Both the position numbers and the translations under genes were made by a program. Of a stretch of DNA of 64,000 nucleotides, positions 33,207 to 63,167 are shown in pieces. Numbering within the stretch: the stretch's first letter is position 1; the number at the start of each line of letters is the position of its first letter. The notes beneath the pieces were generated by a model, which had not been told where the DNA came from, did no database searches, and was given only the letters and a program-made list of their open reading frames with translations. Origin of the DNA: a virus; the IMG/VR virus record IMGVR_UViG_3300027816_000057. One strand, given 5' to 3'.

Positions 33207-33543
33207 AGATTTAGAGAGTGGCAATTTTAGACAGGCAAGATGTAAACTTAAAGATCAAAGAAATAAAGGTTATAATTATTGTTGTATTGGTGTAGCTGAA
33301 GTTTCGGCTAAAAAATGTGATCTAGTTAATGATGTTACTCATAATGTGAGCGGTGATTTACTTTCAGTACTTGCTGAAGAACCAGACGGTTATGATATCG
33401 TAAAGCATTTTTTGAATACTAAAAATCCAGAAATATCTATCAATAATATTGATACAAATTGTATTTCAGCTAATGATAGATATCTTTGCAATTTCAAGCA
33501 AATAGCACAAGGTTTGCGGGATAAATACAATGTTCGAGGTTAA
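33160..33543 (+). CDS. hypothetical protein (family with 54180 and 54533)
   Basis: W..DLESG.F.Q...L...YCCIG...ND..F..IA. Confidence 0.7.
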   Translation: MKLTQKARKFLRQWIKDLESGNFRQARCKLKDQRNKGYNYCCIGVAEVSAKKCDLVNDVTHNVSGDLLSVLAEEPDGYDIVKHFLNTKNPEISINNIDTNCISANDRYLCNFKQIAQGLRDKYNVRG

Positions 33544-34549
33544 AAACTATCGTCTGCGGCTAGTAGAACCATTAGTTAATTCAGACTTTCTTGATATAGC
33601 GTGGGTTAATGATTGGCCCTGCGTCGTAAAACGATCGCAGTATAAAACTGGTGATCTTGTTACTTATATTCCCTCCGATTCTATAGTTCCGGATGAATTG
33701 CTGGAACAAATTGGTCTTAAAGGGAAATTAAGTGGTAGCCGTAAAAACCGGGTAAAAGCTGTTAGACTAAGAGGCCAGTTTAGCTGCGGTTTGATTGTAG
33801 ATGTTCCTAACGGAACAGAAGAAGGCCAAGACGTAGCCGAGATTTTAGGTATTACAAAATACGAAGAACCTATTCCTGCTCAGCTTAGAGGAGTAGCAAG
33901 AAAACATCCTCCGTATTGGTTACATTATGATATCGAAAATATTAGAATGTATAATAGCTGGTTTGAAGAAGGTGAAAGCGTTGTTATAACTGAAAAAGTT
34001 CACGGATGTAATTGCTCGTTCTCTATTCATCTTTCAGATGAAAATGAAATCGTTTTTAGTGTATCATCTAGAAATATAACCTTAGAAGAATCTGATTCGA
34101 ATACATATTGGTCTGTTGCTAGAAAATATAACATTAAAGATTTCATGATGAAATCGTTTTCGCACCTTTTAAATAAAGGAGACGCGATATATTTGTATTG
34201 CGAAATTCTTAATACTCAGGATTTAAAGTATGGAATTCCAAATGGCGAGTTTGAAATCAGGTTCTTTGATCTCCGATTTAATTATAATTGGAGGTCTTTC
34301 TATGATCTTGCTTCATTTCTTGGAAATGATTATAAAACGGTTCCTGTTCTCTACGAAGGGCCGTTCTCAAAAGAAAAAGTATTAGAATATACTAATGGCA
34401 CTGAATTGATTAGCGGGCAACAACTTCATATCCGAGAAGGCTGTGTGGTTCGTCCGGTATTAGAAAGATATTGTGGACGCAATAGAGTCATAGCTAAATC
34501 AATTAGCGAGGACTATCTAACCAGACAAAATGGTACGGAGATGCATTAA
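33530..34549 (+). CDS. RNA ligase, DRB0094/Rnl2-type
   Basis: N-terminal OB-like domain (LRGQFSCGL); TEKVHG; REGCVVRP; KSISEDYL. Confidence 0.85.
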   Translation: MFEVKNYRLRLVEPLVNSDFLDIAWVNDWPCVVKRSQYKTGDLVTYIPSDSIVPDELLEQIGLKGKLSGSRKNRVKAVRLRGQFSCGLIVDVPNGTEEGQDVAEILGITKYEEPIPAQLRGVARKHPPYWLHYDIENIRMYNSWFEEGESVVITEKVHGCNCSFSIHLSDENEIVFSVSSRNITLEESDSNTYWSVARKYNIKDFMMKSFSHLLNKGDAIYLYCEILNTQDLKYGIPNGEFEIRFFDLRFNYNWRSFYDLASFLGNDYKTVPVLYEGPFSKEKVLEYTNGTELISGQQLHIREGCVVRPVLERYCGRNRVIAKSISEDYLTRQNGTEMH

Positions 34550-42107: not shown

Positions 42108-42602
42108 ATGGAAACTTCTAAGAAAACATATCGGAATAAAAGCGAAGAGAATTTCTTTGGGGTTTTGATTGAAAACCCAAAAGTTCCGCAAAATTCATCT
42201 ATCGTTTTTAGAACGGCGGTAGGTTTAGGAAATGTAGATTTTATCGGAACCGTTGGCACTAAATATCACGACTGTCATTCAAATGTAGTTAAAGCACAAA
42301 GAATTCTACCGTGCTGGAATTTTCCTGATTTTAAGACATTTCATGGACAACTACCTATGAATTGTGTTATTGTTGGTGCTGAAATTGATGAACGATCGGT
42401 ACCTATTGAAAATTTTGTATGGCCGGATCGATGTGTTCTTTTGCTTGGAAATGAAAAAGATGGTCTATCTAAAGAAGCTCGTAGCGGTTGTCATAAACTA
42501 GTTAAACTTCCAAATCCTAGAGAGTTGTCTTTTAATTTAGCTATGGCAGGTTCTATGCTTATGTATGATCGATATTGTAAACGTATTAAAGCGGGGTTGT
42601 AG
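42108..42602 (+). CDS. TrmH/SpoU family RNA 2'-O-methyltransferase
   Basis: PQN...RTA, LLLGNEKDGL and SFNLAMAG SPOUT motifs. Confidence 0.85.
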   Translation: METSKKTYRNKSEENFFGVLIENPKVPQNSSIVFRTAVGLGNVDFIGTVGTKYHDCHSNVVKAQRILPCWNFPDFKTFHGQLPMNCVIVGAEIDERSVPIENFVWPDRCVLLLGNEKDGLSKEARSGCHKLVKLPNPRELSFNLAMAGSMLMYDRYCKRIKAGL

Positions 42603-42664
42603 CTCATCGGTAGAGCGGAAAACTGTTAATTTTCTGGTAGTAGGTTCAATTCCTACCTACCCCT
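42593..42664 (+). tRNA. tRNA-Asn(GTT)
   Basis: GGGGTTG/CTACCCC; anticodon arm GAAAA-CTGTTAA-TTTTC. Confidence 0.88.
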
Positions 42665-42668
42665 TTAG

Positions 42669-42757
42669 GCGGGATGTTCCATGAATCCGACTGTAAATCG
42701 GATGAGTGTTATATATTCATGGTGGATGCTCGGAAAGTTCAATTCTTTCATCCCGCA
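42669..42757 (+). tRNA. non-canonical tRNA-Tyr(GTA)-like RNA lacking a D arm
   Basis: GCGGGAT/ATCCCGC; TCCGA-CTGTAAA-TCGGA; T arm GAAAG-TTCAATT-CTTTC; about 30-nt variable region. Confidence 0.7.
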
Positions 42758-51329: not shown

Positions 51330-51816
51330 TTATGAATCTATCGGAATTTTTTCCGATAATAGATTTGTCGCAAAAAATGAAAGATTATCGTGGGATGAGT
51401 ATTTTCTTAATATCGCTTTTCTTGTTGCGGAAAGATCGCACGATTCACAAACAAAACACGGCTGCGTTTTTGTAAAAAATAATCAAATAATAAGTACCGG
51501 TTATAATGGTTTTCCCGGTGGTTCACCCGATGACATTATACCAAATGTAAGACCATATAAATATGATTTTATACATCACGCAGAAGATAATGCTATTTTT
51601 CAAGCAGCTAAATTAGGATTAACTTTAGATGGTTGTGTAGCATATATTACCGGTATGCCGTGTTGCAGATGTTTACCTAAATTAATTAGTGTTGGTATTA
51701 AAAAAATACACATTGGCGATAGAATACATCAACAAACCGAAAAAGATAAATTGTTGCAAGATTTTTGGATTTCTCAGTTTAAATTGGAGATAATAAAAAA
51801 TGGAATTAACCGATAA
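51313..51816 (+). CDS. dCMP deaminase
   Basis: WDEYFL, TGYNG, HAEDNA and PCCRC. Confidence 0.92.
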   Translation: MKSIHDYESIGIFSDNRFVAKNERLSWDEYFLNIAFLVAERSHDSQTKHGCVFVKNNQIISTGYNGFPGGSPDDIIPNVRPYKYDFIHHAEDNAIFQAAKLGLTLDGCVAYITGMPCCRCLPKLISVGIKKIHIGDRIHQQTEKDKLLQDFWISQFKLEIIKNGINR

Positions 51817-53173
51817 TATACTTTTACAGTCAGATAGTTATAAATATTCAATGCATAATCAGTACCCTTCGGGCACTGAATATGTTTATGAATATATGGA
51901 AAGTCGGAAAAACTCGGAATATCCCGATACGGTATTTTTTGGACTTCAATATTATTTAATGAGATATTTAAGTAAACCTGTTACCAAAAAAGAGGTTGAA
52001 TACGCTAGAGATTTTTTCGCACAACACTTCGGTAAAGAGGTATTTAATTATGACGGTTGGATGTATATTGTAGAAAAACACGGCGGATATCTACCTGTTA
52101 CTATTCGATCGGTTGACGAAGGATCGGTTATTCCAATTGACAATGTTCTAATGACGATAGAAAATACCGACCCTAATTGTTTTTGGCTAACTACCTTTCT
52201 AGAGACATTGCTTCTTAAAGTTTGGTATCCTTCAACCGTCGCCACCATTAGTTATTTCAATAAACAAGAGATTCTTAATAATCTAATAGCAACCGGAGAT
52301 CCTTCTTTAATTGATTTTAAGCTGCATGATTTTGGATTCCGAGGAGTTTCATCCTGTGAATCAGCCGCCCTTGGTGGTGCCGGGCATCTAATAAACTTTA
52401 AAGGAACCGATACGGTATTGGCTCTAGAATTAATACGTCAATATTACGACATTGATATGGTCGGTTTTTCTATTCCGGCTATGGAACATTCTACTGTTAC
52501 ATCTTGGGGAGAGAAAAATGAGTCCGCTGCATACGCTAATATGTTGAATAAATATCCAGACGGATTAGTAGCTTGTGTTAGCGATAGTTATGATATCTTT
52601 AACGCTTGCGAAAATATCTTTGGCGAAGAATTAAAAGATTTAGTTGTCAACAGAAAAGGATGTTTGGTCATTAGACCAGATTCTGGTGAACCTACATTAG
52701 TTTTGATGAAGATTCTTCCTAAATTAGAGGCTAAATTTGGCTCTACAATAAATAGTAAAGGATACAAGGTATTACCTCCTTATGTTAGGATTATTTGGGG
52801 CGACGGTATTGATTCTAAGTCTATCCCTTTTATTTTACGAAATCTGAAAGATTTAGGATGGTCCGGCGATAATCTAGCTTTTGGTTCTGGAGGCGGATTA
52901 TTGCAAAAACTAAATAGAGATACACAATCATTTGCTATTAAGTGTTCATCTATTACTGTATTAGGTAATCAAATTAATGTATATAAAAATCCAGTTACTC
53001 AATCTTCTAAACAAAGCAAGAGAGGTAGACTAGATTTAGATTTAATCGCGGGTAAATATATTACCGTGCCAGAAGGTACAGCTATTAATAGTCAGCTAAA
53101 AACTCGATTCCATAATGGAAAACTATTTAATTTAATTTCGTTTAACCAAATAAGGAAAAACGCGAGCAAATGA
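51800..53173 (+). CDS. nadV: nicotinamide phosphoribosyltransferase
   Basis: DSYK, HDFGFRG, EHS, VSDSYD, RPDSG and GSGGGLLQ. Confidence 0.95.
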   Translation: MELTDNILLQSDSYKYSMHNQYPSGTEYVYEYMESRKNSEYPDTVFFGLQYYLMRYLSKPVTKKEVEYARDFFAQHFGKEVFNYDGWMYIVEKHGGYLPVTIRSVDEGSVIPIDNVLMTIENTDPNCFWLTTFLETLLLKVWYPSTVATISYFNKQEILNNLIATGDPSLIDFKLHDFGFRGVSSCESAALGGAGHLINFKGTDTVLALELIRQYYDIDMVGFSIPAMEHSTVTSWGEKNESAAYANMLNKYPDGLVACVSDSYDIFNACENIFGEELKDLVVNRKGCLVIRPDSGEPTLVLMKILPKLEAKFGSTINSKGYKVLPPYVRIIWGDGIDSKSIPFILRNLKDLGWSGDNLAFGSGGGLLQKLNRDTQSFAIKCSSITVLGNQINVYKNPVTQSSKQSKRGRLDLDLIAGKYITVPEGTAINSQLKTRFHNGKLFNLISFNQIRKNASK

Positions 53174-56517: not shown

Positions 56518-56600
56518 GCCGTCGTGTACCGAATTGGTATGGTACCGGTTTTGTAAACCGGCGAGGAAACTCATTGCAGGTTCAAGTCCTGTCGGCGGCT
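56518..56600 (+). tRNA. tRNA-Thr(TGT) with long variable arm
   Basis: GCCGTCG/CGGCGGC; anticodon arm CCGGT-TTTGTAA-ACCGG; V-arm GAG-GAAA-CTC. Confidence 0.85.
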
Positions 56601-56878: not shown

Positions 56879-57982
56879 ATGAATCCAGCAGAAATAGTTA
56901 ATCAGTTCGACTCGATTAAAATTCTTTTACAAGAATTAGATAAATTAGTAGCTGATGGCTATATTTATGAATCCAAAAAGGGTTCACTATCACTATTCAA
57001 TTATTCTGATAAATGCTGTTTTGAAAAACTCTGGAATCCGGTTACTCGTTTAGCACGCGGTCTTATTATTGATCGTGAAAGCGAGCAAATTATATGCTGG
57101 CCTATTCCTAAGTTTTTTAACTATCTTGAAAATATTAATGACAAAATTCCCGATCTCTCATTTGAAATACAAGAAAAAATAGACGGTTCTTGTATATTTT
57201 TATGGATGTATCAAGGTGAATGGTTTTGTTCTACGCGGGGTTCTTTTAATAGCGACCAAGCGGCTTGGGCACAAGACTATATTAATTCTATTTTACATAA
57301 TCTTAATTTATACGCCGACACAACTTATATATTTGAGGTTGTTTATCCCGGTAATAAAATAGTAGTAAATTATAATGGCTACGCCGGATTGTATTCTTTG
57401 ACAGGCTATCAAAATGGAATTGAGGTTGATAAACTATTTTTAGACGATACTTTTCAATATGCTAATTCTCAGAATTCTGATACTATTCGTTTTCCTAAGA
57501 TGTATTCTTACGAAAATATAGAATCTTTAGTTGAAATATGTAAGACTCTTCCGAAAGACGAAGAAGGTTTTGTCGTTCGCTGGAATAATGGTTTTCGTTT
57601 AAAATTCAAAGGTGCGGAATATTTACGAGTTCATAAACTCATTAGTCAAGTTACTCCACTTGGCATTTGGGATATTCTGTGTAATAATGATAATGTTGAT
57701 AATGTAAAACAACAATTACCTGAAGAATTCTGGAATGATTTTGATAGCATAGCCGAAAAACTTAAATTTAAATTTCAACATATAAAATCTCATAATATTC
57801 TTTGGGTTTTAGCTGAAGAAAAAATGAATAATTTAGATAGAAAGACATTTGCGAAGCAGGCTATAGAATCATCTAAAAATGATCCTATTTTAAATACCGC
57901 TTTGTTATTTAAAATATATGACGGAAAAGATATAGATGATATGATTTGGAAAATGATTCGGCCAACGGGTAATGTATTATGA
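56879..57982 (+). CDS. T4 Rnl1-like RNA ligase
   Basis: ARGLI, KFFN, EKIDGS, STRGSF, EGFVV and KFK..EY. Confidence 0.88.
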   Translation: MNPAEIVNQFDSIKILLQELDKLVADGYIYESKKGSLSLFNYSDKCCFEKLWNPVTRLARGLIIDRESEQIICWPIPKFFNYLENINDKIPDLSFEIQEKIDGSCIFLWMYQGEWFCSTRGSFNSDQAAWAQDYINSILHNLNLYADTTYIFEVVYPGNKIVVNYNGYAGLYSLTGYQNGIEVDKLFLDDTFQYANSQNSDTIRFPKMYSYENIESLVEICKTLPKDEEGFVVRWNNGFRLKFKGAEYLRVHKLISQVTPLGIWDILCNNDNVDNVKQQLPEEFWNDFDSIAEKLKFKFQHIKSHNILWVLAEEKMNNLDRKTFAKQAIESSKNDPILNTALLFKIYDGKDIDDMIWKMIRPTGNVL

Positions 57983-62318: not shown

Positions 62319-63167
62319 ATGGATTATCCTAAATTTTGTGATCATCCCGATTTTCTAGCATTAACGGGGTCAAGATTATACGGTTATCATACCGAAAAAT
62401 CGGATTATGATTATCGCGGTTTTGTTGTGCCTCCCTCTAAATATCTTCTTGGTATAGAGAATTTTTTATTCCACCAAAAGAAAGATACTGACACTATAGT
62501 TTTTTCACTAAAGCATTTTATAGATATAACTCTAAAAGGAAATACTCAAACTTTTGAGATTCTTTTTTCTAATGATATACAACATAGTCAGACCGGATAT
62601 GAATTACTTTCTTTGCGTAAAAATTTCTTTAGTCAAAAGATAATACGTTCTACTTTAGGTTTTGCTTTAAGCGAGTGGAGGAAAACTCTTTCTCAGGCTT
62701 TAGTATTTGAATATCGTGATTCAAAACAAGAAGAAATACTAACTCAATTAGCCGGAACCTTTCAACTTAAAAGAGATGAAATAAAAGAAATATACGATAT
62801 AATATTTAGAGAACGAATAGACGACGATCCGCGTCGATATGTTCCTAATGATAAAATAGGCGAAAAAGCTAAACTAGATATACAGCAGTATGGATATCAA
62901 TTAAAACCTGCCTGTAATACAATACGTTTACTTTGCCAAGCAATAGAATTTGTTGAAACCGGCAAAATAACATATCCCCGTCCGGAATTATCGGTACTTA
63001 AAGATATACGATCCGGTTTACTGTCTTATGCAAATGTAAATGATTTATTTAATGAATATTATAATAAATTATCTAAAATTGATTTGTCTAGTTTACCGGT
63101 AAAACCAAATCATAATGGTGTTATGGAATGGTATCGGGACGTAGCCGAAAAGGAGATTAAAAATTGA
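62319..63167 (+). CDS. Pol-beta superfamily nucleotidyltransferase (RlaP/YcgL-like)
   Basis: GSRLYG..SDYDYRG; leaderless. Confidence 0.8.
   Translation: MDYPKFCDHPDFLALTGSRLYGYHTEKSDYDYRGFVVPPSKYLLGIENFLFHQKKDTDTIVFSLKHFIDITLKGNTQTFEILFSNDIQHSQTGYELLSLRKNFFSQKIIRSTLGFALSEWRKTLSQALVFEYRDSKQEEILTQLAGTFQLKRDEIKEIYDIIFRERIDDDPRRYVPNDKIGEKAKLDIQQYGYQLKPACNTIRLLCQAIEFVETGKITYPRPELSVLKDIRSGLLSYANVNDLFNEYYNKLSKIDLSSLPVKPNHNGVMEWYRDVAEKEIKN

Follow-up and report, generated by a model that had tools for sequence, protein, structure and literature searches.

A candidate phage-encoded tyrosine tRNA in which a pseudoknot with the variable arm would replace the cloverleaf D hairpin

The D-armless tRNAs of mitochondria are shortened molecules in which a brief loop replaces the D hairpin and no extra arm is present, and bacterial tyrosyl-tRNA synthetase (TyrRS) selects its substrates through an identity set consisting of A73, G1-C72, the GUA anticodon and a long extra arm. 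In their survey of unusual tRNAs, Mukai et al. 2017 described Ser, His, Cys, Sec and suppressor species, mentioning neither a Tyr species nor a pseudoknot, and the same work connects an acceptor branch of 12 bp with recognition by EF-Tu (PMC5389517). A 2020 review of non-canonical tRNAs, in its available sections, makes no mention of phage tRNAs and describes no such design (PMC7609411), while a 2024 paper holds every known bacterial tRNA to be a cloverleaf. Tyrosine tRNAs are also a target of antiphage defense: Septu and retron-Eco7 PtuAB cleave tRNA-Tyr in its variable arm and thereby halt phages, and the tRNA-Tyr of phage T5 has been reported to be resistant on account of its distinctive variable loop (PMC13096335; PMC11555353). 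Here we describe an element within a 64,000-nucleotide stretch of viral DNA (the whole of which is referred to as the window) that possesses an intact acceptor stem, GTA anticodon arm and T arm, and lacks a D hairpin. Comparison of its sequence with those of its relatives suggests that it is quite probably a phage-encoded elongator tRNA-Tyr(GUA) in which a rewired, pseudoknotted core replaces the cloverleaf.

The window is AT-rich (~32% GC) and consists of phage-like DNA, and freshwater metagenomes contain the same DNA, on contigs that reach ~163 kb. None of the sequencing runs listed as carrying it is an RNA run, a result that weighs neither for nor against expression. ARAGORN identified ten tRNA genes scattered along it, none of which is Tyr. 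Among them, a canonical tRNA-Asn(GTT) at 42593–42664 on the plus strand (Rfam, 66.3 bits) lies upstream of the element and is separated from it by 4 nt, and the two genes are probably carried on one transcript. This tRNA-Asn is in turn overlapped by the 3' end of a gene encoding a SpoU/TrmH-family RNA 2'-O-methyltransferase (42108–42602, plus strand; Pfam PF00588, E 6e-17), a relative of which, at 84% identity, is named 'tRNA G18 (ribose-2'-O)-methylase SpoU' in its source record. Only three protein clusters were recovered for this SpoU neighbor, and the cluster at 46% identity (L003 and L004) has no tRNA downstream; a search for viral relatives of a RuvB-like neighbor found none. Further along the window are genes for an RNA ligase (phrog_968, 33530–34549), a second RNA ligase of the T4 Rnl1/tail-fibre-attachment type (phrog_562, 56879–57982), a nucleotidyltransferase that is possibly CCA-adding (phrog_388, 62319–63167) and NAMPT (51800–53173). 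Together with the SpoU methyltransferase these constitute an RNA-handling kit, in a window where neither the tRNA-Asn nor the element encodes CCA. Two additional features of the window were observed. Between 4600 and 12200 there is no ORF of at least 120 aa on either strand (table 11), TAA, TAG and TGA are frequent in all six frames, and GC content (0.39–0.42) is above that of the rest of the window; this region either holds many very small genes or is mostly non-coding. Also, the tRNA-Thr(TGT) called by ARAGORN at 56518–56600 is unusually long, at 83 nt, and a weak call (33.9 bits on the Rfam tRNA model, with a gathering score of 29).

The element itself occupies positions 42669–42757 on the plus strand (89 nt). 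Its acceptor stem begins with an 8-nt 5' strand, GCGGGATG (42669–42676), which pairs with 42749–42756. Seven of these pairs, GCGGGAT (42669–42675) with ATCCCGC (42750–42756), together with A42757, had been recognized in the original prediction and are present as described, the eighth pair being G42676-C42749; the acceptor 3' strand CATCCCGC plus the discriminator A42757 take up 42749–42757. CCA is not encoded in this copy, in which TTT follows A42757. A 2-nt linker, TT (42677–42678), leads to CCATGA (42679–42684), the 5' strand of a D-like long-range helix, here termed S1, whose partner lies at 42717–42722 (family columns 11–16 and 53–58). S1 is followed by the anticodon arm (42685–42703), comprising a 6-bp stem, ATCCGA/TCGGAT, and the loop CTGTAAA with GTA at 42693–42695. 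The interval between acceptor and anticodon stems is 10 nt only, as had been noted, and a cloverleaf D hairpin is absent. Within the variable region of ~30 nt, the variable-stem 5' strand GAGT (42704–42707) is succeeded by an A/T-rich loop segment, GTTATATAT (42708–42716), which connects the variable stem to the returning strand and is of variable length in the family, with an ATAATAT-like consensus. Next come the S1 3' strand TCATGG (42717–42722), situated within the loop of the variable arm, a conserved TGG immediately 3' of it (42723–42725), and the variable-stem 3' strand GCTC (42728–42731), which closes the pseudoknot. The T arm (42734–42748), again in agreement with the original description, as is the anticodon arm, consists of a 4-bp stem, AAAG (42734–42737) with CTTT (42745–42748), and the loop TTCAATT. 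Several hallmarks of an elongator tRNA are found in the window copy, namely a 12-bp branch (8+4), discriminator A42757, a 7-nt anticodon loop CTGTAAA with U33 and a purine at position 37, and the T loop TTCAATT. Likewise, all four bacterial Tyr identity features (A73, G1-C72, G34-U35-A36 and a long extra arm) are present.

Despite these features, the element was left uncalled by ARAGORN in the window, and among the matches listed ARAGORN overlapped its counterpart in none of 113 viral loci. At gathering scores, no Rfam family matched 42669–42757, where RF00005 (29 bits) was not reached, and none of 78 gathering-level matches overlapped the corresponding gene in L012, L231, L188, L060 or L001; across the window and these five loci, no Rfam family for a pseudoknotted tRNA-Tyr was found at these scores. 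The best relaxed Rfam match of the window was to the tRNA-Sec family RF01852 (30.5 bits, below its gathering score of 47). A TTC/GAA mini-hairpin proposed by the tRNA-Sec model is not kept in L001. This blind spot of ARAGORN and the Rfam tRNA model affects counts of viral tRNAs. In the literature searched, no description of a pseudoknotted tRNA-Tyr without a D hairpin was found, and a family of such non-cloverleaf tRNA-Tyr genes in phages and mobile tRNA arrays is apparently undescribed. Fremin et al. 2023 list a viral candidate RNA, DNAVirus_1423, sometimes overlapping ARAGORN tRNA-Tyr calls, which could represent an earlier sighting of the same family.

Relatives of the element were collected by scanning IMG/VR contigs and bacterial genomes with a pattern in which a Tyr anticodon arm is followed, at over-long spacing, by a T loop. 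Matches were obtained on at least 120 IMG/VR contigs and at 66 places in bacterial genomes, and the layout of the window copy was found in nearly all viral matches among the matches listed as well as in 17 bacterial genome matches. One hundred distinct sequences, with viral rows drawn from among the matches listed, were aligned with MAFFT without fitting to any structure (alignment A2). On the resulting family model, R2, the window scores 81.6 bits, being itself one of the 100 training rows. Because the search pattern itself required the anticodon arm and T loop, their conservation among relatives was not taken as evidence. Two features that the pattern did not impose are A73, present in 100/100 sequences, and the last G of a YGG motif after the returning strand, which is invariant (TGG in 92 relatives, CGG in 4, AGG in 2 and TTG in 2). 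The second T of the 2-nt linker is conserved in at least 90% of the alignment, and 96 of the 100 relatives possess G1-C72. Searches with the window sequence itself yielded little: neither the window region nor the L012 copy had a blastn match among isolate phages, and scans of viral contigs with an exact 21-mer of the window and a 19-mer returned nothing, or the L001 contig only.

Covariation in this alignment supports the proposed structure. Overall, 93.5% of cells were paired, compared to 71.0 ± 0.5% after shuffling (with none of 500 shuffles reaching the observed value), the covariation score was 0.609 against 0.157 in shuffles, and pairing was 40–54% when the partner was slid by 1–3 columns. 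All eight acceptor pairs covary in the 100 relatives, including the eighth (GC in 76, UG in 11, AU in 9, UA in 3 and CG in 1, with no unpaired case). The T stem is 4 bp in the family and its pairs covary, the commonest clade carrying U.U at the outer T-stem pair. For S1, which joins nucleotides 11–16 to the strand in the variable region, 99.3% of cells are paired and 6/6 pairs vary on both sides; one of them, for example, is UA in 51 sequences, CG in 31, AU in 8, GC in 5 and GU in 4. Given no hint of the structure, RNAalifold recovered the same acceptor stem, S1 and T stem, together with a 6-bp anticodon stem. The sixth pair of that stem, 17-35, reads A-T in the window but T-A in L001; at pair 18-34 the window has T-A and L001 has G.T. 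As MAFFT aligns it, the variable stem is 70% paired; since its 3' strand is misplaced in the alignment, this stem was tested with a separate swap control, in which a perfect 4-bp stem was found in 98 of the 100 sequences, compared to 44 ± 4 after 5' strands were swapped among them. S1 and the variable stem cross, and therefore form a pseudoknot.

These results refine several points of the original prediction. An 8-bp complementarity had been proposed between CCATGAAT (42679–42686) and ATTCATGG (42715–42722); it is indeed present in the sequence, but only 6 bp of it, CCATGA (42679–42684) with TCATGG (42717–42722), are conserved, and the remaining two pairs more likely belong to the 6-bp anticodon stem. 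Similarly, the variable region can close as GAGTGT/ATGCTC, as suggested, but the conserved stem amounts to 4 bp (GAGT, 42704–42707, with GCTC, 42728–42731) and not 6. Of the two folds that had been offered, a pseudoknot or an extended anticodon helix, the pseudoknot is favored because the same layout occurs in relatives and both crossing helices covary. The same observations support the proposals that the fold is selected rather than decaying and that it may represent a new, non-cloverleaf tRNA architecture.

In the closest relative, L001, whose SpoU protein is 84% identical, the element likewise follows the same tRNA-Asn, an Asn-then-Tyr pairing, and a tRNA-Asn also precedes the gene in L012. 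Acceptor, anticodon and T stems are identical between L001 and the window, the downstream spacer is unrelated and the flanks diverge, and the differences within the element are located in the D-replacement strand and variable region. There, S1 reads CCATAA/TTATGG in L001 and CCATGA/TCATGG in the window, a compensatory swap of G-C to A-T. The search for homologs that had been recommended thus found S1 kept with compensatory changes, and no normal tRNA-Tyr with a simple deletion was seen among the relatives. Folding of individual sequences was less informative. The window has a fold z-score of -2.83, modestly above shuffles, so the case rests on its relatives; among nested folds, an alternative at -29.5 kcal/mol is 4.8 better than the family fold at -24.7, in a calculation that leaves out pseudoknot energy, and L001 does not keep the alternative hairpin. 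Minimum free energy folding of single sequences missed the family fold in both the window and L001; for L012 it did yield S1 stacked on the anticodon stem, but not the T arm.

The same data bear on whether the element might be a tRNA-Tyr pseudogene in decay, or else a product of misassembly, with the D arm deleted and extra sequence inserted in the variable arm. Such an origin would fit with the gene being uncalled by ARAGORN and Rfam and with the window copy having no encoded CCA. However, an independent contig carries the identical sequence, at least 24 contigs contain the flanking gene, and at least half of the sampled words are present in each of 10 sequencing runs, which come from separate studies. 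Furthermore, 100 distinct sequences share the layout, and every helix shows compensatory changes among them. We therefore give this explanation almost no credence, and regard it as nearly certain that the family is real and that the window copy belongs to it.

The genomic surroundings of the relatives provide insights into their likely function. In the 113 viral loci among the matches listed, the nearest tRNA lies a median of 10 nt away, the median number of tRNAs per locus is 10, and CCA is encoded in 83. At least seven arrays of 25–37 tRNAs (L011, L031, L038, L051, L067, L082 and L110) lack Tyr only, and bacterial copies reside in arrays of 20–32 tRNAs with no Tyr called, in Bythopirellula, Neorhodopirellula and a Leptospirales genome. 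Taken together, the arrays without Tyr, the encoded CCA, the neighboring tRNAs, the 12-bp acceptor branch and the agreement of A73, G1-C72 and GUA with the bacterial tyrosine identity set point to a working tRNA-Tyr, and on such sequence-based grounds there is a good likelihood that the element functions as a tyrosine tRNA.

This gene is not always the sole source of tRNA-Tyr, because at least nine of the 113 viral loci among the matches listed, and four bacterial genomes, hold a canonical copy as well. A canonical tRNA-Tyr was located elsewhere in 4/5 of the carrier bacterial genomes checked; in the fifth, Tateyamaria (G005), none was matched by the patterns used, in a search by pattern only. 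Neorhodopirellula pilleata Pla100 (NZ_SJPM01000014.1; L138 and L191) contains two arrays, of 22 and 26 tRNAs and ~36 kb apart, with an identical copy of the unusual tRNA-Tyr in each, and a canonical tRNA-Tyr on another contig (L194). The possibility that the gene is the standard tRNA-Tyr of Planctomycetota was rejected: in a sample of 151 genomes, examined with strict filters and 29 candidates scored per genome, a match was present in 6/151, and carriers also possess a canonical tRNA-Tyr. The pseudoknotted tRNA-Tyr is an accessory gene and not the host standard.

Co-occurrence with canonical tRNA-Tyr in several genomes would also be compatible with a tRNA-shaped decoy or sponge, which is made and processed, goes unused in translation, and soaks up a tRNA-Tyr nuclease or another tRNA-binding factor, thereby sparing the tRNA-Tyr of the host. 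In line with such a role, an over-expressed phage tRNA-Tyr partly suppresses the Septu-mediated loss of host tRNA-Tyr (PMC13096335), and the window encodes RNA repair enzymes. Against it, a decoy has no need of an encoded CCA, an invariant A73, G1-C72 or a 12-bp branch preserved in two layouts (8/4 and 7/5); the large arrays, the unusual gene aside, are without Tyr only; and a decoy for a nuclease acting on the variable arm should retain a normal arm there, not lose it. The earlier suggestion of a decoy for anticodon nucleases is accordingly left without support, because the element fills the single empty amino-acid slot of large tRNA arrays and keeps Tyr identity features, and we consider a decoy role of any kind improbable relative to a translating tRNA-Tyr.

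A second lineage sharing the topology of the first was also identified. Its 11 distinct sequences possess a 7/5 acceptor branch (7+5 = 12 bp) and a 5-bp long-range helix, which covaries (ACGGC/GTCGT, ACACC/GGTGT and ACGTC/GGCGT), and their variable stems differ in the same manner (CTGC/GCAG, CCGC/GCGG and CCAC/GTGG). One member is an unannotated tRNA-Tyr of Bacteroides phage crAss001 (MH675552.1, 4141–4235, corresponding to L231:1194–1288; helix ACATC/GATGT), which fills the gap between tRNA-Lys t16 and tRNA-Phe t17 in an array of 23 annotated tRNAs containing no Tyr. Second-lineage copies are contained in 31 isolate records (crAss001, the PhiCrAssBcn phages and cr112_1), with no feature annotated beneath the match, and among the isolate phages searched this is the only lineage with cultured phage carriers.

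A UCU anticodon is also borne by the 8/4 pseudoknotted scaffold. Two copies, at L077:7010–7095 (minus strand; R2, 50.2 bits) and L105:7970–8054 (plus strand; R2, 49.2 bits), possess the anticodon loop CTTCTAA (UCU) and discriminator G, and the design is therefore not confined to tyrosine; their G73 and extra arm recall serine identity. A further copy (L046:727–826, minus strand; 46.6 bits), with the helix CCATGT/ACATGG, is located beside a pseudoknotted tRNA-Tyr. In the model alignment it has 19 nt at the position of the 7-nt anticodon loop, which by eye correspond to a 6-bp stem and a loop of ~16–17 nt, and it may represent a variant that carries an intron or does not decode.

The existence of the same scaffold with a UCU anticodon and G73 raises the question of whether the GUA members might be charged with another amino acid, for instance by SerRS acting via the extra arm, with partial recoding of UAY codons as the outcome. 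The 8/4 layout with an extra arm does resemble that of allo-tRNAs, which are charged by SerRS whatever their anticodon (PMC5389517). Nevertheless, A73 is invariant in Tyr members, whereas SerRS, according to one review, uses G73 (PMC7609411). The gene also fills the Tyr gap of the arrays. Moreover, G1-C72, A73 and GUA make up the bacterial Tyr identity set. Charging with a different amino acid thus appears very improbable, and tyrosine is the expected substrate of the GUA members.

For a tyrosine-accepting tRNA, the conserved pairings suggest how the rewired core might be arranged in three dimensions. The 8-bp acceptor and 4-bp T stems keep the usual 12-bp acceptor branch, and nucleotides 11–16, while pairing with the strand inside the loop of the variable stem, continue directly into the anticodon stem. 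Because the 5' strand of S1 runs into the anticodon stem in this manner, the two helices should stack, as do normal D and anticodon stems. The returning strand, directed toward the elbow, may replace the 5' strand of the normal D stem; since it runs elbow-ward and is followed by GG, that dinucleotide of the YGG motif would land roughly where G18-G19 meet the T loop, and might stand in for them. The variable stem would be positioned alongside the long-range helix, where the link from the returning strand, of 3–5 nt only, may be sterically tight. An L shape could still be reached in this way, and be usable by RNase P, the CCA-adding enzyme, host TyrRS, EF-Tu and the ribosome, with TyrRS presumably reading A73, G1-C72, the GUA anticodon and the extra arm. 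We hold this three-dimensional logic with even measures of belief and doubt.

Why the core would have been rewired is a more speculative matter. Escape from nucleases is plausible given that Septu and retron-Eco7 PtuAB cut the variable arm of tRNA-Tyr, a basis that consists of E. coli systems only. By analogy, the design might have spread in phages through a remodelled variable arm that evades these systems, which we put forward tentatively and consider less than probable. The most far-reaching proposal would be a naturally evolved tRNA whose core has a strand order unlike that of every described tRNA, with its D helix formed in trans with the variable arm through a pseudoknot, which is active in translation, has arisen at least twice (8/4 and 7/5), also exists with a UCU anticodon, and has been selected because it makes tRNA-Tyr resist variable-arm-cutting nucleases of the Septu and retron PtuAB type; as a whole, this combination seems doubtful.

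If a widespread pseudoknotted tRNA-Tyr does work without a D hairpin, it would constitute a natural exception, and would demonstrate that the L shape is attainable with a different strand order. It would also account for the many phage tRNA arrays that seem to miss tyrosine alone, and offer synthetic biology a ready-made non-canonical scaffold. Should the shape protect against tRNA-Tyr-cutting nucleases, it would represent a new kind of counter-defense. Cultured systems are at hand for such investigations: phage crAss001 on its host Bacteroides intestinalis, and two planctomycetes, Bythopirellula polymerisocia Pla144 and Neorhodopirellula pilleata Pla100.

In relation to known systems, the tRNA-Tyr of T5 (PMC11555353; PMC13096335) shares with the present element its presence in a phage and a variable region unlike that of the host, and suggests a possible selective reason; T5 tRNA-Tyr keeps the normal cloverleaf and varies in its loop, whereas the element is pseudoknotted and any resistance on its part is hypothetical. 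D-armless mitochondrial tRNAs, such as mammalian mitochondrial tRNA-Ser(AGY) and those of nematodes, similarly have no D hairpin between acceptor and anticodon stems. Unlike these, the RNA described here is full length (89 nt), would rebuild a D-like helix from the variable arm, and belongs to phages and bacteria rather than organelles. The (8/4) tRNA-Ser and tRNA-His species and allo-tRNAs (PMC5389517) have in common with it a branch of 8+4 = 12 bp, a lengthened anticodon stem and an extra arm that is likewise long, and they too are found in clusters of phage tRNAs, but those are described as variants of the cloverleaf, while the element carries GUA and A73 (G73 in Ser) and no D hairpin. Bacterial tRNA-Sec (RF01852) is comparable in its 8-bp acceptor stem, 6-bp D-type helix, 6-bp anticodon stem and long extra arm, and differs in its anticodon (UCA, not GUA) and branch (8/5, not 8/4); its D helix closes a 4-nt loop of its own, whereas that of the element encloses the anticodon arm. 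Finally, canonical class II tRNA-Tyr(GUA) (RF00005; copies in L198, L194, L211 and L223, and in T5 and T6) matches the element in several respects: both are ~85–89 nt long and located in arrays, both present GUA in a loop of 7 nt and agree with the T-loop consensus, and both have A73, G1-C72 and an extra arm that separates the anticodon arm from the T arm. The canonical molecule is set apart by its D hairpin and 7/5 branch, in place of which the element has a pseudoknot built from nucleotides 11–16 and the loop of the variable arm, on an 8/4 branch.
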